DNA of 64,000 bases from Pseudonocardia sp. (GTDB lineage: Bacteria > Actinomycetota > Actinomycetes > Mycobacteriales > Pseudonocardiaceae). The stretch covers positions 5,335-69,334 of the forward strand of contig JBFWRR010000007.1 of assembly GCA_050248815.1 (NCBI GenBank), in the 5' to 3' direction. The notes beneath the pieces were generated by a model that was not told the origin of the DNA, searched no databases, and was given only the letters and a program-made list of their open reading frames with translations. Made by a program: the position numbers and the translations under genes. Below are positions 42,845 to 52,550 of this stretch, piece after piece (positions within the stretch are counted from its first letter, which is position 1; each line of letters opens with the position of its first letter).

Positions 42845-45800
42845 TCAGGGGCGGTGCCGGCCCGGCGCGATCCGCACCAGGTCGAGCACCGCCCGCACCG
42901 GTCCGTCGACGGGGGCGCGCAGCGTGATGCCCTCGCGGTCCAGCGCCTCGACCAGCAGGCCGACCCCCGCACTCCCCAGGTAGGTGAGCCCCGTGACGTC
43001 CAGGACGACCGGCACGTCGCCCGCGAGTGCGGACGTCAGGTCCTCGCGTACCGTGGCCACCCCCGCGAGGTCCAGCTCCCCGGTGATCACCACCCGCCGG
43101 GCGCCGTCCCCCGTGAGCACGCGCAGCCGCGTGGGCGACACGGGCGGCGCGCTCGGCATCCGCTCCGCGGCGGCGGGCACCATCCGCGGCGTCATCCGGA
43201 AGCGGACGACGGTGCCGCCCGGCCCCGGTTCGACCGCCGCCTCCGAGCTGAGCAGCCGGATCAGGTCCAGCCCGCGGCCGCGGTAGCCGCGGTCGACCGG
43301 CGGCGGGCGCCACGTCCCGAAGTCGCGGACCAGCACGTCGACGGCGCCGCCCGGCCCGAGCTGCAGCCCGACCTCGACGGCCCCGGTCGTGCCGTCCGGG
43401 TAGGCGTGCTCGACGGAGTTGGCGACGGCCTCGCCCAGCGCGAGCTGCAGGTCGTCGGCGGGCTCCCCGGCGATCCCGGCCGTGGCCAGCCACCCGGCCA
43501 CCGACCGGCGCAGCCCGCGCAGCTCCTCGGCGCGCGCCGGGATGCGCAGGTGCAATGGCTCCGGACCGAGCCGCGCCGCGATGACGGCGACGTCGTCGGG
43601 TGGGCCCGCCGGGTGCAGGACGCGTGCGAGCACCTCGTCGATGAGCCGGTCCGGCGCCGCGCCCATCGCCGCGAGGGCGGCCCTGCGCAGCCGGCGCAGC
43701 CCGTCGTCGATGACCTCACCGCGGCGCTCGACGAGACCGTCGGTGTAGAGCAGCAGGACCGCGCCCGCCGGGAGCGTGGTGGCGGCCTCGGTGAACCCAC
43801 CGCCCGCGCCCAGCACCCGCCCCGGCGGCCCGTCGAGGTACTCCGCGTCCCCGTCGGTCAGCACGAGCGGAGGCGGGTGCCCGGCGCGCGCCCAGCGCAG
43901 GTCCCCGCTCGCCACGTCCAGGACGAGGCAGGCCACGGTGCTCGCCCGCGCCCCCGTGACACGGCGGGCGAAGCGGTCCAGGCGGGTGAGCGCCGCGGCG
44001 GGTCCGCACCCGTCGAGCAGGGCGGCCGCCAGCGCGCTGCGCAATTGCCCCATCACGGCCGCGGCTGCCGCACCCTGCCCGACGACGTCGCCCACCACGA
44101 TCGCGACCTTCTGCCCGTCCAGCGGCAGCACCTCGTACCAGTCCCCGCCCGCCTGGGATCCGTGCGCACCCGGCTCGTAGCGGGCGGCGAGCCCGAGGCG
44201 CTCGATCGTCGGCAGCTGCGCGGGCAACAGGCTGTGCTGCAGCGTCTCGGCGATCTCGCGGCGGGTGTCGGCGAGCGCGGCGCGCTCGAACGCCTGGGCG
44301 GCGTGGGCGCACACGGTGCGGGCGAACTGCTGCTCGTCCGGGTCGAAGGTGCGGCGGGTCGCGAAACTCGCCGCGAGTGCGCCCACCACCCGGCCGCCCA
44401 CGAGCATCGGCAGCGCCATCAGGGCCTCGTTGCCCGTGACCGCGTGGTGCTCGGTCAGGTGCGGGAAGCGCTCCCGCCAGTCCTCGTCCGAACGCAGCCA
44501 CACCGGCTCCGCGGTGCGCGCGCACACCCCGACGGGCTGGTCGTCCTCCGCGCGGACGACGCCGTAGTGGCGCAGCAGGAGGTCCGGGTAGCCACTCGAG
44601 TGCACGACGCGCAGGCCCAGCGCCGGATCCCGCAGGTAGGCCGCGACGGCCGTCGCACCGAAGGCGTCGCGGACCCCGACCGCCATCACCCGCGCCGCCT
44701 CCGCCACGGTGCCCGCCGCGGCGAGCGCCGTCGTGATCTCGACGAGCCTTCGCTCACGGGTGCTCAGCCGCTCGGCCTCGAGCAGCAGCGCCGCCCGGCG
44801 GCCCAGCTCGGCGGCCAGCGCCCGGTCCTCCGCGTCGTACTCGCGCGGGGCGCCGGTCGCGACCATCGACAGCGTCCCGCGCATCCGCCCGCCGACCACG
44901 AGCGGCACGATCAGCGCCGAGCGGAAGCTCAGGTCACGACGCATCTCGTAGTCCGACTCGCCGGCCGCGATCGCGCGGAGCTCCGCATCGGTCGGGGTGG
45001 CGACGACGAACGGTTCACCGGCGTCGTAGCGGTCGCGCAGCGCGGGGGACAGGGGGTAGCCCGCGGTGGTCAGGAGCTGCCGCTCGGCGGCCGGGCGCGC
45101 GGGGCTCACCACGGCGAGCGGCCGGAGCATCCCGTCCGGGCCGAGGGCGGACACCGCGCCGAGATCGGCCATCGCGGGCACCGACCGCCGCAGCAGGGTG
45201 GTGAGCCTTGCGGCCAGCGGGCCGCCCTCGTCGGCCCGGCCGATCTCGGCGAGCAGCGCCGTCACCTGCCGGGCGCGCTCCTGGGCGGTGACGTCGACCA
45301 TCACACCCTGGAGCCGTTCCACCGCGCCGTCCTGGCCGAGCGCGACGTGCACGAGGTCCTGGCACCAGACGGTGTGCCCGTCCGCGGCGCGCAGGCGGTA
45401 CGCGGACACCTCGAAGTCGACGCCCCCGGCGATCCCGTCCGCGTGGCGGGCGGCCACGCGCTCGCGATCCTCGGGGTGGATGAGCGAGCGCCAGAAGTCC
45501 TTCGGACCGAGCCAGCCCTGCGCCGGGTGCCCGGTGAGTTCCTCCACCGGCTCGGAGACGAACACGACCTCCTCGGAGCGGGCGTCGATCTCCCACACGA
45601 CGGCCGCGAGCCCGTCCACGAGCGAGCGCAGCCGGGCCGCCAGGGCCTCGGCCGCGTCGCGGGCCGCCCGCTCGGCGGCGGCCCGTTCCCGCAGCCGCTG
45701 GGCGGCGGCGTGTTCCGACTCGGCCCGCTGCTGCGCCGCGGCGGTCAGCGCGTCCGCGACGGCGGCGCCGACCTGGCGCGCGACCAGGTCGAGGAACGCG

Positions 45801-46699
45801 CGGCAGTCCTCGTCGAGCTGGCCGCGGCGCACCCCGATCGTGATCACGCCGACCGGCCGGGCGGAGCCCGCGACCAGCAGCGGGAGGAGCACGGCCGTGT
45901 CCGCGACCTCCGAGCCGGGGGCGCGGTGCCCGGGGTGGGCCCGCGCGTCGGCGGGGAGCACCTCCGTCGACCCCGTCCGGACGACCCGGGCGAGGGAGCT
46001 GTCGGGGGGCGCGAGCGGGATCGCCCCGGTGTCCCCGGTGTCCCCGGTATCGAGGCCGTGGCTCGCCACCAGCCGCAGCACCGGTCCGGCGCCCGCATCG
46101 TGGTCGACCAGGTGCACCGTCGTGAACGGGGTGTCGGCCCGTTGACCGGCGAGCACCTCGACGGCGGCCTCGCACGCCTGCTGCGGCGTGCGTACCCCGG
46201 CCGCGGCGACCTCGCCGAGGCGGCGCAGGGTGGCGAGCCTGCGCCTGCCGAGGACGTGGTCCGTCACGTCCAGGCCGACGACCGACACCCCGGTCCACGG
46301 CCCGGCCCCGCCTGCGGGGATCGGGGTGCATGCGAGGGTCACGAAGACCTCCTCGACGTACCCGTGGCGCACGACCGGCACCGGCTGCTGTGCACGGCGG
46401 ACCGGTGCGCCCGTGGCGAGGGCCTCCCGCGCCAGGTCCCTCACGACGGCCCATCCCGCCGGGTCCGGCTCGCCGTCCGCCGCGGGCGGGCCGCCCATCA
46501 GCGCGACGATCGGGTCGTTGGCGACCGCCGCCAGGTCGGGTCCCCACAGCACGGCCGAGGGCAACAGGGAGGAGCGGCAGTGCTCGATCGCTGCGTGCAG
46601 CGCCGGGAACCGGCCCTCGCCGGGGGCGAGCACCGTGCGCGCGGCGGCTCCGGGCTCCGGAGAGGGACCGGCCGCACCGGTCGGCTCGACGGCAGTCAT
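42845..46699 (-). CDS. Multi-domain partner-switching regulator: GAF/PAS sensors, SpoIIE PP2C phosphatase, RsbW-type HATPase and STAS
   Basis: GGDWYE, VGDVVGQG, LYTDGLVE, DDVA (PP2C); LGEAVANSVEHAY, DFG.W, RGRGL (HATPase); GELDLA...LTYLGSAG (STAS); PAS IHPEDR; SD AGGAGG. Confidence 0.93.
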   Translation of the reverse strand: MTAVEPTGAAGPSPEPGAAARTVLAPGEGRFPALHAAIEHCRSSLLPSAVLWGPDLAAVANDPIVALMGGPPAADGEPDPAGWAVVRDLAREALATGAPVRRAQQPVPVVRHGYVEEVFVTLACTPIPAGGAGPWTGVSVVGLDVTDHVLGRRRLATLRRLGEVAAAGVRTPQQACEAAVEVLAGQRADTPFTTVHLVDHDAGAGPVLRLVASHGLDTGDTGDTGAIPLAPPDSSLARVVRTGSTEVLPADARAHPGHRAPGSEVADTAVLLPLLVAGSARPVGVITIGVRRGQLDEDCRAFLDLVARQVGAAVADALTAAAQQRAESEHAAAQRLRERAAAERAARDAAEALAARLRSLVDGLAAVVWEIDARSEEVVFVSEPVEELTGHPAQGWLGPKDFWRSLIHPEDRERVAARHADGIAGGVDFEVSAYRLRAADGHTVWCQDLVHVALGQDGAVERLQGVMVDVTAQERARQVTALLAEIGRADEGGPLAARLTTLLRRSVPAMADLGAVSALGPDGMLRPLAVVSPARPAAERQLLTTAGYPLSPALRDRYDAGEPFVVATPTDAELRAIAAGESDYEMRRDLSFRSALIVPLVVGGRMRGTLSMVATGAPREYDAEDRALAAELGRRAALLLEAERLSTRERRLVEITTALAAAGTVAEAARVMAVGVRDAFGATAVAAYLRDPALGLRVVHSSGYPDLLLRHYGVVRAEDDQPVGVCARTAEPVWLRSDEDWRERFPHLTEHHAVTGNEALMALPMLVGGRVVGALAASFATRRTFDPDEQQFARTVCAHAAQAFERAALADTRREIAETLQHSLLPAQLPTIERLGLAARYEPGAHGSQAGGDWYEVLPLDGQKVAIVVGDVVGQGAAAAAVMGQLRSALAAALLDGCGPAAALTRLDRFARRVTGARASTVACLVLDVASGDLRWARAGHPPPLVLTDGDAEYLDGPPGRVLGAGGGFTEAATTLPAGAVLLLYTDGLVERRGEVIDDGLRRLRRAALAAMGAAPDRLIDEVLARVLHPAGPPDDVAVIAARLGPEPLHLRIPARAEELRGLRRSVAGWLATAGIAGEPADDLQLALGEAVANSVEHAYPDGTTGAVEVGLQLGPGGAVDVLVRDFGTWRPPPVDRGYRGRGLDLIRLLSSEAAVEPGPGGTVVRFRMTPRMVPAAAERMPSAPPVSPTRLRVLTGDGARRVVITGELDLAGVATVREDLTSALAGDVPVVLDVTGLTYLGSAGVGLLVEALDREGITLRAPVDGPVRAVLDLVRIAPGRHRP

Positions 46700-46770
46700 C
46701 CCCCTCCTGGTGGTTTCCCGGAGAAGGTAGTCGGGCGCGGTCTGACGAAGCCACTCCTACCGGGCGCGGG

Positions 46771-46968
46771 TCAGGTGGCGGCGCGGTTCAGCCGCTCCGC
46801 GGCGAGCTCGGCGAGGGTGCGGATCGAGCAGGGGTGACGCTCCGGGTGGGCGTCGTGGGCGCGGCACAGGCCGACGTGATCGGGGGTGTGCTCGCGCAGC
46901 AGGCGCTCGACCAGCTCCGGTGTCGCGGCGAGCTGTTCGGCACAGGCGGCGAAGGCATCCGGCAGCAT
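46771..46968 (-). CDS. Small hypothetical protein (65 aa), H-x-PD-x2-G-x-C-x2-H...PC motif
   Basis: SD GGAGAG upstream; alignable by eye to 50144..50353. Confidence 0.7.
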   Translation of the reverse strand: MLPDAFAACAEQLAATPELVERLLREHTPDHVGLCRAHDAHPERHPCSIRTLAELAAERLNRAAT

Positions 46969-47197
46969 GTTTCTCGTTCTCTCCAGGCGGGAGCGGACCA
47001 GCTTCGTACCTGACCGACGAGCGAGGCAACCGCCGGTTTCGGCTCCGGCACCAAGTTGGTCCGACCGAGCCTGGCCGGCTGCCCGGGGTCGCGTCCGAAC
47101 GGTCCGATACGGCTACGGCACTTCCGCCGGGACCGCGGCAGGGTGCCGGGCGGGCGCGCGGCCCCGGCACCGCCCGATCCGGACCGTGTCGTTCCGC

Positions 47198-47611
47198 TCA
47201 CTCCGTGCAGCTGCCGACGATCTTGTCGATCTCCACGTCCAGGTTGATGTGGCGTGACTCGTCACCGAACGCCACGACCTCGAGGGAGGCGTCCACGAAA
47301 TGACGCAGCATGTCGCGGTCCACCTCCAGGACCGCGCGTCCCTCCGAGGAGCAGATCTCGATCTCCACGACGTCGTAGCCGTGCACCTCGCACGGTCGCA
47401 TCCGGATGTCGCCCTCGCCGACCGGGCCGGCGAGGGAGGCGATCACCAGCTCGCGCCCGACCAGCCACTCGACCCAGCGGTCCTTCCTGGTCCGGACCGC
47501 GACGGTGATCGCGAACGGGTCCGACGCGTCGTAGCTCCAGCGCGTCACGATCGGCGCGGGCTGCCCGTGCAGCACGGTGAACATGTCCTGCTGGACCGAG
47601 CTGGTCGTCAT
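47198..47611 (-). CDS. SsgA-like sporulation/cell-division protein (SALP)
   Basis: WSYDASDPFAI, VEWLVGRELV, GEGDIRMRP, SSEGRAVLE, FVDAS..VV..GDE; SD GGGAG. Confidence 0.88.
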   Translation of the reverse strand: MTTSSVQQDMFTVLHGQPAPIVTRWSYDASDPFAITVAVRTRKDRWVEWLVGRELVIASLAGPVGEGDIRMRPCEVHGYDVVEIEICSSEGRAVLEVDRDMLRHFVDASLEVVAFGDESRHINLDVEIDKIVGSCTE

Positions 47612-47744
47612 GGTCGCTCCCAGTGCCGCGGAGGTGGCCGGGCGCCACGTGCGCCGACCTCACCTGGGCATCGCGGGCCGCGACCCGAACGCACCACCCC
47701 GCATCCGGGTTCACCCGAACAGGGGCGCGCACGGGACGGACGGC

Positions 47745-48224
47745 TCATGAGCCAGGTGCGATCGCGGCCCGCGAGACGACCCAGATGCCGCGGGGACCGG
47801 TGCGTCCGGGCTGCACCAGCACCAGGTGCGCGACGGTCCCGCCGGGTCCATGCAGGGTCACCGACAGCTCCGGGCCCCCGCCGGAGTGGCCGCCGAGCAG
47901 CTCCGCGGAGGCGTCCGGCCAGCCATAGGCGGCGGCGCCGAAGGCCGTGGCCACCGATTCCGGGTCGAGCAGCCACGGCTGGGCCCCGGCGTCCACCCGT
48001 TCCTGCACGACGGCGACCCCGGGGCCACCCACGGGCCAGGGCAGCGGCGGGTCGGGGGCCGCCGCCGTCGGGAGCGCTCCCGTCGAGGGCGCTCCCGTCG
48101 AGGGCGCAACCGGGGGAGCGGGAGGGGCGTCCGCTCGCCCGGCCGCTGCGCAGCCGCCGAGCGTGAGCACCAGCGGCAGGGCCGCCCCGAGCAGGACGGG
48201 GACGACGGGCAGCCCGCGCTCCAT
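47745..48224 (-). CDS. Putative lipoprotein
   Basis: Hydrophobic signal peptide with lipobox LGGC, a Pro-rich linker, then QERVDAGAQPWLLDP...QPGRTGPRGIWVV. It is the tail of track ORF 47745..50114. Confidence 0.7.
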   Translation of the reverse strand: MERGLPVVPVLLGAALPLVLTLGGCAAAGRADAPPAPPVAPSTGAPSTGALPTAAAPDPPLPWPVGGPGVAVVQERVDAGAQPWLLDPESVATAFGAAAYGWPDASAELLGGHSGGGPELSVTLHGPGGTVAHLVLVQPGRTGPRGIWVVSRAAIAPGS

Positions 48225-48332
48225 GGCGGGCACGGTAGCGGCGGGCTTCGCGAACCCCCCCGTCGGGAGGTAGGGCGGGTTCGCGTTCGTCACTAGGGTC
48301 GGTCGTGAACGACAGTCGATCCTCGTGAGGCG

Positions 48333-50042
48333 ATGTCCATGAATCCTTCGGCCCGGTCCTTCTACGCGGCCCGTGAGTTCCTGTTCACCCACCGCGAGGA
48401 CTACGGGACTGCCTACCGGGAGTTCCGCTGGCCCGAGATCGGCGAGTTCAACTGGGCGCTCGACCACTTCGACGCCGTCGCCGCGGATCCCGAGCGCGGG
48501 GCCCGCCGCGCGCTGTGGATCGTCGAGCAGGACGGCTCCGAGGCGCACTGGACCTTCGCCGAGCTCGCCGAGCGCTCGAACCGGGTCGCGAACTGGCTGC
48601 GGGACCAGGGCGTGGCCCGTGGCGACCGCCTCGTCCTCATGCTGGGCAACCAGCTGGAGCTGTGGGAGACGCTGCTCGCCGCGATGAAGATCGGCGCCGT
48701 CGTCATCCCGGCCACGACGCTGCTGGTGGCGGGCGACCTGCGCGACCGCATCGACCGGGGGGCGGCCCGCCACGTCGTCGTCGGTGCGGCCGACACCGGG
48801 AAGTTCGACGGGGTGGAGGGCGACTACACGCGGATCGCCGTGCGGTCCCCGGACGGGGTGGCGCCGCAGGGCTGGCTGCGCTACGAGGACGCGTACGAGG
48901 CCCCGGCTGAGTTCACCCCGGACGGTGTCACCCGCGGCGAGGACACGCTGCTGCTCTACTTCACCTCCGGCACGACCGCCAAGCCCAAGCTCGTCGAGCA
49001 CACCCACGCCTCCTACCCGGTGGGGCATCTGTCGACGGTCTACTGGATCGGGCTGGAGCCGGGCGACGTCCACCTCAACATCTCCTCGCCCGGCTGGGCC
49101 AAGCACGCGTGGAGCAACGTCTTCGCGCCGTGGATCGCCGAGGCGTGCGTGCTCGTCATGAACTACGCGAAGTTCGACGCCGCGAGCGTGCTGAGCGTGC
49201 TGGACCGCTGCGGGGTGGACAGCTTCTGCGCCCCGCCCACGGTGTGGCGGATGCTGATCCAGGCGGACCTCTCCTCCCTCGCGAAGCCCCCGTCGAAGGT
49301 CGTCGGGGCGGGCGAGCCCCTCAACCCCGAGGTCATCGAGCAGATCGAGAAGGCGTGGGGCGTGCGGATCCGGGACGGCTTCGGCCAGACCGAGACCACG
49401 CTGCAGATCGGCAACTCGCCCGGCCAGACCGTCAAGCCCGGCTCGATGGGCCGTCCGATCCCCGGGTACCCGATCGTGCTCGTCGACCCCGCCACCGGCG
49501 CCACCGACGTGGACGAGGGCGAGATCTGCATCGACCTGTCCCGACGGCCGCTCGGGCTCATGGTCGGCTACGCGGGCGACCCGGAGCGCAACGCCGAGGC
49601 GATGGCGGGCGGCTATTACCACACCGGTGACGTCGGCTCCCGGGACGCGGACGGCTACATCACCTACGTCGGGCGCGCCGACGACGTGTTCAAGGCCTCG
49701 GACTACCGGATCTCGCCGTTCGAGCTGGAGAGCGTGCTCATCGAGCACCCCGCCGTCGCGGAGGCGGCGGTCGTGCCGTCGCCGGACCCGCTGCGCCTGG
49801 CCGTCCCGAAGGCCTACGTGGTGCTCGCGGCGGGTCACGAACCGAACGAGGAGACCGCGCGCTCGATCCTCGAGTTCGCCCGCGACAACCTGGCCCCCTT
49901 CAAGCGCGTCCGGCGCCTGGAGTTCTTCGACCTGCCGAAGACGATCTCCGGCAAGATCCGCCGTGTCGAGCTGCGTGGTCGGGAGGGAGAACTGCACGCC
50001 GACGCGTCGAACCAGCCGCCCGGCGAGTACACACTTTCGTGA
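48333..50042 (+). CDS. AMP-binding acyl-CoA synthetase (medium/short chain)
   Basis: YFTSGTTAKPK, GAGEPLN, DGFGQTE, YHTGD, GRADD, PKTISGKIRR. Confidence 0.95.
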   Translation: MSMNPSARSFYAAREFLFTHREDYGTAYREFRWPEIGEFNWALDHFDAVAADPERGARRALWIVEQDGSEAHWTFAELAERSNRVANWLRDQGVARGDRLVLMLGNQLELWETLLAAMKIGAVVIPATTLLVAGDLRDRIDRGAARHVVVGAADTGKFDGVEGDYTRIAVRSPDGVAPQGWLRYEDAYEAPAEFTPDGVTRGEDTLLLYFTSGTTAKPKLVEHTHASYPVGHLSTVYWIGLEPGDVHLNISSPGWAKHAWSNVFAPWIAEACVLVMNYAKFDAASVLSVLDRCGVDSFCAPPTVWRMLIQADLSSLAKPPSKVVGAGEPLNPEVIEQIEKAWGVRIRDGFGQTETTLQIGNSPGQTVKPGSMGRPIPGYPIVLVDPATGATDVDEGEICIDLSRRPLGLMVGYAGDPERNAEAMAGGYYHTGDVGSRDADGYITYVGRADDVFKASDYRISPFELESVLIEHPAVAEAAVVPSPDPLRLAVPKAYVVLAAGHEPNEETARSILEFARDNLAPFKRVRRLEFFDLPKTISGKIRRVELRGREGELHADASNQPPGEYTLS

Positions 50043-50143
50043 CGCAACCCGCTGCTCACCGCCGATCGACCGGATCCCGCCGGTCGCCGGATCGCGTTCC
50101 ATCGGCCGCGACATGACCGAGGGGGCGATGGTGTGCTGAGCCG

Positions 50144-50353
50144 GTGAGCACCTCGACGAGGTCCGTGGCCCCCCTGGCGGAGGTCATGGCCGGCATGCCG
50201 GAGGTCTGGCGCACGCTGCTCGTCGCGCACGTGCCGGACCGCTTCGGGCACTGCACCACCTGCAGGCACAGCGTGAGCGGGTCCGCGCCGCGCTGGCCGT
50301 GCACCCTGCACCGCATCGCGAGCGACGCACAGCGGATGGCCGAGGAGGTCTGA
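50144..50353 (+). CDS. Small hypothetical protein (69 aa), H-x-PD-x2-G-x-C-x2-C...WPC motif
   Basis: Alignable by eye to 46771..46968; fills the gap after the acyl-CoA synthetase. Confidence 0.7.
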   Translation: MSTSTRSVAPLAEVMAGMPEVWRTLLVAHVPDRFGHCTTCRHSVSGSAPRWPCTLHRIASDAQRMAEEV

Positions 50354-50369
50354 CCGGTCACGTCGGGAC

Positions 50370-50880
50370 GGGGCCGGGCTCACCGGCGCGCGGGCGCGTG
50401 CCGGGTCGAGCAGCAGGCGCTCCGCTCCGTGGCGGGCCACGACCTGCAGGCCCACCGGGGCGCCGTAGCGCGTGCGCCCGGCCGGCACGGTCACCGCCGG
50501 GTGACCGGAGAGGTTGGACGCCCAGGTCAGCGCGACGCTCAGTTGCTCCCCGAGGCCGTCGTGCCCGTCCGGCGGGCCCGGTGTCGTGGGGGTCAGGAGG
50601 AGGTCGGCGTCCGCGAAGAGCGCCGCGAGCCGCCGGTCGTCGTCGGCGCGCAGGGCGAGCGCGGTGGCGGGGGTGACGCACGCGGGTCCGAGCGCAGCGC
50701 GGCCGGTGCCGTCCAGGCGGGTGCCGGGTCCCGCGGTGTCACCGCGACGTCGCACCAGGACAGGCCCGTGTCGGTCGCGAGGCGCTCCGCCGCGACCGCG
50801 GCAACCGCGCCCGCCGACGAACCGCCCGGCGACAGGTCCGCCCGCCACGGGTCGCGGGTCGGTCCGCGCTCGCCGGGACC
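50370..50880 (-). pseudogene. Amidase-signature family remnant
   Basis: One frame gives GPTRDPWRADLSPGGSSAGAVAAVAA; another gives LFADADLLLTPTTP...NLSGHPAVTVPAG...PVGLQVVARHGAERLLL. The N-terminus and the GSDxGGSIR nucleophile block are missing. Confidence 0.85.
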
Positions 50881-50890
50881 GCGGGCACGG

Positions 50891-50950
50891 CGGGGCTCGG
50901 CGGGGCTCGGCGGGGCTCGGTAGGGCTCGGTGGGGCTCAGCGGGGCTCAG
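50891..50950. repeat. 10-bp tandem repeat x6
   Basis: CGGGGCTCGG x3, TAGGGCTCGG, TGGGGCTCAG, CGGGGCTCAG. Confidence 0.93.
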
Positions 50951-51576
50951 CGGCGGAAGTGGCCCGGCCACTCGCCGTACGGGATGCGGGTGATGTCGAG
51001 GACCTCCCCGATCGTCGACCACTCGTTGCGCCCCAGCCGGGCCAGCGGGCGCAGCTTGTCGACCATCGGCAGGCCCCCTTCGGCCGGGTCGCCGTCCAGG
51101 ACGTCCGTGGCGATACTCGCGTGCACCACCCGCCCGATGACCACCGTGCAGTCGCCCAGGGTCAGGTCCCGCTCCAGGCGGCACTCGAACGCCACCGGCG
51201 ACTGCGCCACCCGCGACGGCGCCACGAGCGCGCTCGGCTCAGCAGTGAGCCCCACCGCACCGAACTCGCTCACACCCGCCGGGAAGTTCGTTCCCGTGGC
51301 GTTGACCTGCTCGAACAACCACTCCGGCGCGAGGCAGACGACGAACTCGCCCGTCTGGCGCACATTGGCGAGCGAGTCCTTCACGCCGACGGAGGTGAAC
51401 TGGAGCATCGGCGGGGTCACGCACGCCACGGTGAAGAACGAGTGCGGCGCGAGGTTGTCCACCCCGTCGGCCGATCGGGTCGAGACCCACGCGATCGGCC
51501 GCGGCACCACGCTCGCCGTGAGGAGCTTGTAGAACCGTCGGGCGCCGAGCTCGCCGGGGTCCAGGTCGGTGCGCAT
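50947..51576 (-). CDS. Flavin reductase-like (DIM6/NTAB family) FMN-binding protein
   Basis: VVPRPIAWVST, NLAPHSFF, KDSLANV, SPVAFECRL, LARLG. Confidence 0.92.
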   Translation of the reverse strand: MRTDLDPGELGARRFYKLLTASVVPRPIAWVSTRSADGVDNLAPHSFFTVACVTPPMLQFTSVGVKDSLANVRQTGEFVVCLAPEWLFEQVNATGTNFPAGVSEFGAVGLTAEPSALVAPSRVAQSPVAFECRLERDLTLGDCTVVIGRVVHASIATDVLDGDPAEGGLPMVDKLRPLARLGRNEWSTIGEVLDITRIPYGEWPGHFRR

Positions 51577-51608: not shown

Positions 51609-52550
51609 GTGCGGGGACGTGTGCTCGGTCTGCTGGTCGGCGCGGTCGCGGACGCGCTGCTCGGCGATCCCCGGCGGGGTCACCCGGTCGCCGGCTTCGG
51701 GCGGGTCGCTGCGGCGCTGGAGCAGCGCTGGTACGCGGACTCGCGGGCGGCGGGCGCGGCCTACACCGCTGCCCTGGTCGGTGGCACGGTCCTGCTCGGC
51801 GTCCTGGCCGAGCGGCTCCCGGCCCGGACGCTGACGACGGCGGCGGCGACGTTCGTCGTCCTCGGTGGTGGATCGCTCGCCCGGGAGGGCGACGCCCTGG
51901 CCGGGGAGCTGTGCCGCGGGGATCTCGCCGCGGCCCGCCGCCGGATCCCGAGCCTGTGCGGGCGCGATCCCGCGTCGCTCGACGCGGCGGGCATCGCCCG
52001 GGCCGGCACGGAGTCGCTGGCGGAGAACACCTCGGACGCCGTGGTCGCGCCGCTGCTCTGGGGCGCGGTCGCGGGCGTGCCGGGTCTGCTCGGATACCGC
52101 GCGGTGAACACGCTGGACGCGATGATCGGCTATCGCTCGCCGCGCCTGCTGCGCTTCGGTTGGGCCGCCGCCCGGCTCGACGACATCGTCAACTGGGTCC
52201 CTGCGCGGGTGACGGCCGTGCTCACGGCCGCGGTGGCGCCGCTGGTCGGCGGCTCGCCGCGGGCGGTGCTGCGAGCGTGGCGGCGCGACGCCGCCGCGCA
52301 TCCCAGCCCGAACGCGGGTCCCGTCGAGGCGGCGGCCGCCGGGGCACTCGGCGTGAGGCTCGGGGGGCTCACCGTGTACGCGCACGGGCTGGAGCAGCGC
52401 CCGGTGCTCGGCTCGGGTCCGCCGCCCGCGCCGGCGGACCTGCGGCGGGCGGCGCGGCTGTCGAGGCTGGTGGGCGCCGCCGCTGTACTGGTCGCCGTCC
52501 TGGTCGCTGCCCCGACCGCCGGTCTCGCCTCGAGGACGCCGGTGCGCTGA
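51609..52550 (+). CDS. cobD: Adenosylcobinamide-phosphate synthase CbiB/CobD
   Basis: GDPRRGHPVAGFG, ESLAENTSDAVVAPL, YRAVNTLDAMIGY, HPSPNAG. Confidence 0.95.
   Translation: MRGRVLGLLVGAVADALLGDPRRGHPVAGFGRVAAALEQRWYADSRAAGAAYTAALVGGTVLLGVLAERLPARTLTTAAATFVVLGGGSLAREGDALAGELCRGDLAAARRRIPSLCGRDPASLDAAGIARAGTESLAENTSDAVVAPLLWGAVAGVPGLLGYRAVNTLDAMIGYRSPRLLRFGWAAARLDDIVNWVPARVTAVLTAAVAPLVGGSPRAVLRAWRRDAAAHPSPNAGPVEAAAAGALGVRLGGLTVYAHGLEQRPVLGSGPPPAPADLRRAARLSRLVGAAAVLVAVLVAAPTAGLASRTPVR

Follow-up and report, generated by a model that had tools for sequence, protein, structure and literature searches.

What do two short reading frames near a gene for an SsgA-like protein (SALP) encode, and do their products work with it? 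The frames lie in a 64,000-nucleotide stretch of DNA from Pseudonocardia sp. (assembly GCA_050248815.1, contig JBFWRR010000007.1, positions 5,335 to 69,334 of the forward strand), which is referred to as the window and supplies the coordinates below. A preliminary description of the window had put forward two paralogous, putatively metal-binding microproteins of a lineage-expanded family without a name, possibly serving as developmental or redox regulators together with SALPs. Both open reading frames (ORFs), taken from an ORF listing, are present where it placed them:

ORF A, 46771..46968, minus strand: microprotein of 65 amino acids (aa) from an ATG start, CxxH (HCHC) clade
ORF B, 50144..50353, plus strand: microprotein of 69 aa from GTG 50144, mainstream CxxC (HCCC) type

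On balance, these genes appear to encode anciently diverged members of an uncurated protein family that would act as zinc-stabilised adaptors in the genomic slot of the AbaA and IosA proteins, the copies in the window standing alone.

A shared His/Cys motif defines an uncurated family

ORF A and ORF B match each other by BLASTP with an E-value of 4e-7 (31% identity over 54 residues) and have in common the tetrad H-x7-C-x2-[C/H]-x8-12-C. The putative ligands are H27 (46888-46890), C35 (46864-46866), H38 (46855-46857) and C47 (46828-46830) in ORF A, and H29 (50228-50230), C37 (50252-50254), C40 (50261-50263) and C53 (50300-50302) in ORF B. In an alignment of 29 sequences the invariant columns, in ORF A numbering, are P17, H27, G33, C35, P46, C47, A53 and A56; at the fourth ligand, position 38, A-type sequences have His and B-type sequences have Cys. 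The CxxH clade to which ORF A belongs conserves C9, H41 and H45 in addition. The motif holds again in an alignment of 78 sequences, and with it both the proposed paralogy and the four proposed His/Cys ligand positions, which are invariant across the family and fit a metal site. From about 190 sequences the consensus reads LA-x-MP-x-VW-x-x-LL-x-x-H-x-PD-x-x-G-R-C-x-x-C-x(4-13)-WPC-x-L-x-x-IA-x-x-A, and we define the family here by the core motif LA-x-MP-x-VW-x2-LL-x2-H-x-PD-x2-G-x-C-x2-[CH]-x(4-13)-[WH]PC-x-L-x2-[IL]A-x2-A, over the whole of which both ORFs align. The two proteins fall in the range of 7.2-7.6 kDa, with a pI of 5.9 for ORF A (acidic) and 7.8 for ORF B. Nearly all conserved residues of the family are core or ligand positions and the surfaces differ among paralogues, a pattern that fits partner-specific adaptors.

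Homologue searches returned 20 sequences for ORF A (58-92% identity) and seven for ORF B, and those that carried a name were all called "hypothetical protein". Profile scores in the genome of origin run from 1e-19 to 1e-25. When the profile of the 29-sequence alignment was searched against 1.84 billion representative proteins, it matched 866, nearly all 55-160 aa long, at E<=1e-3, of which 47 reached E<=1e-10; the ten clusters that were looked up were all unnamed. A profile search of this kind, which had been suggested as a check for a characterised family or for a lack of homologues, thus yields homologues in number and no characterised family. As had been anticipated, no named family was recovered: Pfam and NCBIfam contain none for ORF A, ORF B or the 78 aligned members, and PHROG, PADLOC and a sequence profile search of the PDB gave no family match. 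Longer profile matches (143-451 aa), checked for domain fusions, contained no Pfam domains and were uninformative. A leucine-rich repeat (LRR) protein, P0139, among the profile matches is a false positive, and it accounts for the LRR and Xop names in the library results. A score to DUF6085 (PF19563) arose for ORF A only (residues 3-51, E=0.022, 15.1 bits against a cut-off of 27.1 bits); it is taken as chance because it lies below the cut-off and because ORF B and all other members tested give nothing. The family is an undescribed, uncurated one of proteins of roughly 60-90 residues from Pseudonocardiaceae, with no Pfam model.

Distribution and phylogeny

The genome of origin, assembled from a landfill or sludge metagenome, has six copies, the two in the window and one each on contigs C67, C120, C14 and C27. 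All 24 other sampled genomes of the genus Pseudonocardia are positive, with 1-25 copies each, in keeping with the lineage expansion first proposed. Outside Pseudonocardia the family thins out: 31 of 60 genera of Pseudonocardiaceae have a match at E<=1e-3, none of 16 other sampled families of the order has any copy, and none of 250 other genomes of the class has a match at E<=1e-7 (eight candidates scored per genome). ORF A-type genes are confined to about five of 25 genomes of the genus.

In a maximum-likelihood tree all CxxH sequences, ORF A included, form one group (support 100/93) that is nested among the CxxC sequences, near XRE-linked paralogues from the same genome. ORF B belongs to a separate supported clade (95/94). 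These separate clades mark ORF A and ORF B as old paralogues, not as the product of a recent duplication.

Many of the weak matches in other genera of Pseudonocardiaceae (L106-L113) represent a second architecture of 220-270 aa. It comprises an N-terminal helical segment, the HCCC core GWR-x-LL-x-x-H-x-PD-x-x-GRC-x-x-CPG...RWPC-x-VW, an extended disordered stretch and, conserved at the C-terminus, PPIGGH(L/M)ETD..IHRA, and belongs to no Pfam family. These weak matches were considered as zinc-binding anti-sigma (ZAS) factors, a reading set aside in view of this longer architecture with its HCCC core and disordered tail and of the lack of a Pfam family.

Evidence for coding and transcription

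GC content at the three codon positions of ORF A (GC1/2/3) is 0.82/0.52/0.91, the typical coding pattern for this genome. Pairwise ratios of nonsynonymous to synonymous substitution (dN/dS, Nei-Gojobori) against orthologues are 0.13-0.56 for ORF A in 12 comparisons and 0.09-0.10 for ORF B in two ungapped comparisons. ORF A is covered by metatranscriptome contigs from strains 93-96% identical, found in three separate studies (activated sludge, sediment and soil), and one 531-nucleotide contig of a relative links the 3' end of the SALP gene to ORF A across the intervening spacer. For ORF B, one 158-nucleotide contig lies within the gene and covers 50170-50327. The two ORFs are genuine protein-coding genes under purifying selection and are transcribed in relatives.

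That they might instead be conserved but functionless small frames, or miscalls caused by high GC, gains something from the abundance of long spurious frames in high-GC genomes and from the lack of any promoter or terminator consensus. Set against it are dN/dS values well under 1, the correct codon-position GC pattern, His/Cys positions that are invariant in hundreds of sequences, high AlphaFold2 confidence (see below) and RNA contigs over both ORFs, and we regard this explanation as exceedingly improbable. Scans of 46500-51000 for sigma-70 promoters and intrinsic terminators found none, as expected for a high-GC actinomycete.

The public assembly of the same genome already calls both ORFs as genes, of 65 and 62 aa. 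The description of the pair as unannotated is accordingly right insofar as both are unnamed hypothetical proteins, and wrong insofar as gene calls exist. For ORF B, alternative starts are GTG 50165, which gives the public 62-aa call, and ATG 50186, which has GGAGG 3 nucleotides upstream. Amino-acid conservation among orthologues reaches upstream of Met15, so that GTG 50144 or GTG 50165 is the more likely start.

Predicted fold and metal site

An AlphaFold2 model of ORF A, built with the family alignment, has a mean predicted local distance difference test (pLDDT) score of 92.8 and a predicted template modelling score (pTM) of 0.78, with helices at 5-14, 17-26 and 48-64 and a short bridged knuckle between helices 2 and 3. 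The model of ORF B (pLDDT 84.9) has the same order of elements, helix-helix-knuckle-helix. In these models the tetrad begins at the C-terminus of helix 2 with H27 (ORF A) or H29 (ORF B), the next two residues form the knuckle (C35-x2-H38 and C37-x2-C40), and the fourth in chain order is at the N-terminus of helix 3 (C47 and C53). Structural zinc sites have a tetrad layout of this kind, and a CxxC knuckle joined by a Cys at the N-terminus of a helix is a classic zinc geometry. As modelled, the tetrad most likely holds a structural Zn(II) ion. Foldseek at E<1 found nothing in the PDB for either model and nothing in BFVD for ORF A.

The tetrad might alternatively bind an iron-sulfur cluster of the CDGSH or Rieske type, in which case the proteins would be redox or nitric oxide sensors analogous to the WhiB-like (Wbl) proteins. 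Ligand sets of three Cys and one His, and of two Cys and two His, are both known for [2Fe-2S] centres, and a WhiB gene directly precedes that of one family member. The proteins have no similarity to the Wbl or CDGSH families, however, and the loop between the third and fourth ligands varies from about 4 to 13 residues, which a structural zinc knuckle accommodates better than a cluster site does. Together with the zinc-like geometry of the knuckle, these points make an iron-sulfur site quite improbable.

Paralogues beside WhiJ-like and BldB-like regulators

The neighbourhoods of 65 loci were compared, 60 of them from eight multi-copy genomes, four being the other copies of the genome of origin, and one coming from a plasmid. 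Neighbours were clustered around the microprotein, itself anchored by hidden Markov models (HMMs), and the principal associations were recounted with six-frame HMMs that are independent of the gene caller. By this recount, an XRE-DUF5753 (WhiJ-like) gene lies within 3 kb at 23 of the 65 loci, 19 of which also have a DUF397 (BldB-like) gene. The background of 97 DUF5753 genes in about 71 Mb from nine genomes corresponds to roughly 0.8% per locus and gives a binomial P of about 8e-30; the loci are not all independent, several being orthologous between genomes, which weakens this P but cannot abolish the association. A search for XRE/DUF397 neighbours, one of the checks suggested at the outset, has thus been productive.

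The commonest layout is DUF397 < XRE < > HCCC, with the microprotein gene divergent from the regulator. At nine further loci a small MerR/excisionase-like helix-turn-helix (HTH) gene is divergent at position -1, and at five loci a 410-aa XRE protein is encoded upstream on the same strand. Recurrent neighbour clusters carry the Pfam labels HTH_31+DUF5753, DUF397, small MerR/excisionase-like HTH, 410-aa XRE and, for the type IV coupling protein (T4CP), TraG-D_C; SLT transglycosylase, DUF6879, Methyltransf_19 and flavoprotein clusters also recur. An association of the paralogues with AMP ligases (5/65 loci) was judged no more than expected for so abundant an enzyme family.

Paralogues C27 and C120 of the genome of origin both show the DUF397<XRE<>HCCC layout. 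Their intergenic regions of 105-110 bp carry GGGAAC-N9/10-GGGATTCCC, and these are the sole two copies in the 5.8-Mb assembly. The operator-like motif is located at C27:37853-37875 and C120:5909-5932, and a third copy is found in the equivalent intergenic region of another Pseudonocardia genome (L074).

Other XRE-DUF5753 genes of the same genome (C80:10020-10304 and C18:63571-63870) have a small divergent ORF of unrelated sequence, in one case for a 94-aa protein with C...C...CPDC. This suggests that the divergent slot beside XRE-DUF5753 is filled by several different families of small proteins. Three loci (L053, L071 and L084, in genomes G023, G005 and G022) form a distinct sub-context of the family: a gene for a 380-440-aa XRE protein is followed on one strand by a flavoprotein gene (PF02441) and the HCCC gene, beside an SNF2 helicase gene.

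Copies on mobile elements

A tblastn search of plasmids gave one match, on a 58-kb plasmid of Pseudonocardia broussonetiae, where the gene order is WhiB, family member, DUF2637, hypothetical protein, TraM-recognition protein (T4CP), with a DUF6879/HTH pair divergent upstream. The same search of phage records gave no match. Conjugation genes (T4CP or SLT) occur within 5 kb at nine of the 65 loci. It could be argued from these data that the family is mainly cargo of conjugative plasmids and integrative elements, used in transfer, establishment or conflict between elements, and that the copies in the window are domesticated or decaying remnants. The plasmid copy between WhiB and DUF2637/T4CP, the loci with conjugation genes, the nine with a divergent excisionase/MerR-like HTH gene and a copy number that ranges from 1 to 25 within one genus would all agree with this. 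ORF B, on the other hand, is fixed in the core genome and strongly constrained by purifying selection (dN/dS about 0.1), neither PADLOC, PHROG nor phage searches gave a match, and XRE-DUF397 modules are common in non-mobile chromosomal regions too. A family made up chiefly of mobile cargo seems doubtful to us.

Organisation of the window locus and the link to the SALP

Around the two microprotein genes the following features were recognised:

42845..46699, minus strand: PAS-GAF-PP2C(SpoIIE)-HATPase_c_2-STAS protein of partner-switching type, 1284 aa (Pfam domains)
47198..47611, minus strand: SALP, 137 aa, immediately upstream of ORF A (Pfam SsgA, E=1.5e-26)
47745..48224, minus strand: predicted lipoprotein, 159 aa, no Pfam family, between the SALP and ligase genes (gene call of the public assembly)
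48333..50042, plus strand: AMP-binding enzyme of acyl-CoA ligase type, 569 aa (Pfam AMP-binding, E=6.6e-58)
50947..51576, minus strand: flavin reductase, convergent with ORF B, at the far edge of the conserved block (Pfam label)
51609-52550, plus strand: CobD, after the flavin reductase (Pfam label)

As first described, ORF A lies downstream of the SALP gene in the same orientation, across a 229-bp spacer, and upstream of the gene for the 1284-aa partner-switching protein, across a 71-bp spacer. The latter gene has a strong ribosome-binding site, AGGAGGGGG. ORF B follows the ligase gene on the same strand after 101 bp. The claim that the pair flanks the SALP gene is thus correct for ORF A, which adjoins it, and needs qualification for ORF B, which is on the opposite strand from ORF A and lies beyond the lipoprotein and ligase genes.

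The histories of the two positions differ. In most genomes of the genus, the ORF B orthologue is bounded by the AMP-binding ligase gene on one side and the flavin reductase/CobD genes on the other. The entire block, SALP <- lipoprotein <- | -> ligase -> ORF B <- flavin reductase -> CobD, is present in 10 of the 12 loci examined over 18 kb, and the order ligase-ORF B holds in 10 of the 12 as well as in most 3-kb loci. ORF B is a genus-wide core gene. Its distance from the SALP gene, roughly 3 kb, is kept across the genus with the genes divergent and two others between them. This proximity is weak evidence of a functional link, and it says little on function because it falls inside a vertically inherited core block and cannot be told apart from inherited synteny. 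Orthologues of ORF A type were found at 12 loci from other species or metagenome-assembled genomes (60-70% identity), and none of these has a SALP or SpoIIE gene within 1.5-6 kb; genes for a HAD-IIA hydrolase, Nei and a P450 are there instead. The SALP-ORF A arrangement is limited, beyond this genome, to L035, the nearest relative (91% identity), and one metatranscriptome strain at 93% identity, no HCCC-like gene follows the SALP gene in other species, and the gene for the 1284-aa protein adjoins ORF A only in this species group. Since the 12 other loci are without the SALP gene and just these two relatives have it, the adjacency is a recent, lineage-specific juxtaposition.

These data bear directly on the suggestion that the microproteins are developmental or redox regulators acting with the SALP, for instance in septum-site selection or as a link to the PP2C partner-switching protein. 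The spacing of ORF A, with 229 bp to the SALP gene before it, 71 bp to the PP2C/HATPase_c_2/STAS gene after it and no terminator-like site, would allow for such a role, as would the relative's contig that spans the SALP 3' end and ORF A, the occurrence of ORF B in a block with the SALP gene at 10 of 12 loci of the genus, and the control of development in Streptomyces by WhiJ/BldB-type modules like those associated with the paralogues. The ORF A-type loci of other Pseudonocardia that lack a SALP or SpoIIE gene speak against it, and so do the absence of anything HCCC-like 3' of SALP genes in other species, the divergent orientation of ORF B and the SALP gene with two genes between them in a core syntenic region, and the location of most paralogues nowhere near a SALP gene. 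The suggested partnership with SALPs is in our view unlikely, and the comparative data do not support it.

Some further features of the locus may be recorded. The single chain of the 1284-aa protein contains PAS, three GAF domains, PP2C/SpoIIE, an anti-sigma-kinase domain (HATPase_c_2) and STAS. AbaA-like proteins have this HATPase_c_2 type of domain, and the protein encoded 3' of ORF A thus carries the domain that fills the equivalent slot of WhiJ/BldB clusters in Streptomyces. The predicted lipoprotein (47745..48224) has a signal peptide and a lipobox-like LTLGGC, and keeps its position between the SALP and AMP-binding ligase genes across the genus with 38-68% identity. ORF B and the flavin reductase gene are 593 bp apart (50354-50946), and the gap contains, at roughly 50400-50700 on the minus strand, a C-terminal amidase-signature fragment (GatA/FAAH-like, E about 2e-7 to PDB chains) with no N-terminal part. 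In the closest relative, L035, this gap is 19 bp only, and the fragment appears to be either the remains of a pseudogene or a small insertion, peculiar to this genome.

A proposed role for the family

The reading favoured here would run as follows. In the predicted fold of each protein, a Cys-x2-Cys/His knuckle joins two short helices to a long C-terminal one, with the tetrad probably holding a structural Zn(II) ion. The family has multiplied within Pseudonocardia; about a third of its copies are divergent from the paired genes of a WhiJ-like XRE-DUF5753 regulator and a BldB-like DUF397 protein, and others, carried by conjugative plasmids or integrated elements, have a small HTH regulator gene as neighbour. 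In the ancestral setting, a divergent HTH regulator would govern expression of the microprotein, which may itself be a small, locally regulated, zinc-stabilised three-helix adaptor whose binding partner would be another protein of regulatory or signalling function. ORF B would be a derivative that has become fixed in the chromosome and probably shares a transcript with the acyl-CoA ligase gene. ORF A would represent the derived clade in which the second Cys of the knuckle has become His, as a His-enriched and acidic copy that in this species group alone came to lie between the SALP gene and the PP2C/anti-sigma-kinase/STAS gene and is probably co-transcribed with them. Zinc binding, an adaptor function, regulation by the neighbouring XRE protein and any part in development are inferred, and the adaptor is placed in the slot of AbaA and IosA by analogy.

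Several points weigh against this proposal. The ligand geometry is read from a predicted fold. The metatranscriptome contigs are RNA data in which DNA carry-over is possible, and they say nothing of translation. Neighbouring genes in the relatives were called with a simple GC3-based caller, the loci share ancestry in part, as noted above, and about half of the paralogue loci have no recognisable regulator next door. In this region of the contig, neither ORF A nor ORF B has an XRE, DUF5753, DUF397 or HTH neighbour, and the operator-like motif is absent near both; the function of the window copies is therefore extrapolated from their paralogues.

A bolder version can also be formulated. The family would then supply WhiJ/BldB-type modules with an effector or third component of a new, metal-dependent kind, a functional analogue of AbaA and IosA in actinomycetes other than Streptomyces, and ORF A, with its additional C9, H41 and H45, would have been rewired into an operon with an SsgB-type SALP and the PP2C/anti-sigma-kinase/STAS protein, coupling a metal or redox cue to the control of septation or sporulation. 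We consider this version speculative and unlikely. That ORF A now acts in development, taken by itself, we would not expect.

Few regulatory units of actinomycetes are as expanded, or as little understood, as the WhiJ/BldB (XRE-DUF397) modules, and the adjacent third genes of Streptomyces, the abaA paralogues and iosA, are those that block development. Pseudonocardia appears to fill this slot with microproteins that probably bind zinc, which would provide a second, structurally simple entry to the action of these modules. With 866 representative clusters and no Pfam model, the family deserves curation. The window itself is more modest: it has two orphan copies, one of them newly beside a SALP gene and a partner-switching phosphatase gene, and offers an unproven lead for Pseudonocardia development.

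Comparison with known systems

Two families of small, regulatory actinomycete proteins invite comparison. The ZAS domain (zf-HC2, PF13490) is, as predicted for the proteins described here, a small helical domain with a zinc site of His and Cys-x2-Cys; it binds a regulatory partner and is common in actinomycetes. Its ligands, however, are H-x3-C-x2-C within helices plus one upstream, whereas the family has H-x7-C-x2-C/H in a knuckle and a downstream Cys. The family also shows no such Pfam match at E<=1 and has neither a transmembrane nor a sigma-factor neighbour. An assignment to the ZAS domains was rejected on the ligand spacing and the missing Pfam match. The Wbl proteins are likewise small, actinomycete-restricted, Cys-rich, multi-copy regulators, often borne on plasmids or phages, and the family member encoded right after a WhiB gene adds to the resemblance. 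The Wbl proteins differ in having four Cys (C-xn-C-x2-C-x5-C), a [4Fe-4S] cluster and another fold. ORF A and ORF B have three Cys each, only two of them in the tetrad in the case of ORF A, and no match to Pfam Whib; with too few Cys and no such match, the family was not accepted as Wbl proteins.

The closest parallel is with the WhiJ/BldB clusters of Streptomyces, in which bldB (DUF397) paralogues adjoin whiJ (XRE) paralogues, often together with abaA (HATPase_c) paralogues and once with iosA (PMC10294661). In these clusters the neighbouring WhiJ paralogue controls the divergent gene, whose product inhibits development, and overexpression of iosA or abaA6 blocks sporulation (PMC10294661). IosA (vnz16670), a protein of 15 kDa with a pI of 10.3, lacks informative relatives in sequence or structure (PMC10294661). 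XRE/DUF397 pairs, at one time put forward as toxin-antitoxin systems, behave as pleiotropic regulators instead (PMC10364602).

The family is set apart from AbaA by the absence of HATPase_c_2, there being no Pfam match in any of the 78 members, and no homology is seen. From IosA it differs, to judge by size, pI and description only, in that IosA is about 15 kDa with a pI of 10.3 and no reported metal motif, as against 7.2-7.6 kDa and pI values of 5.9 and 7.8 for the two window proteins. Unlike the Streptomyces genes, the two window copies are not beside any XRE/DUF397 pair. The likeness is in the arrangement. For a third of the family's paralogues the slot is the same: a small gene, usually divergent from an XRE-DUF5753 gene paired with DUF397. 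Two family loci have a conserved intergenic repeat, and the family shares with IosA the want of an informative sequence or structural neighbour.

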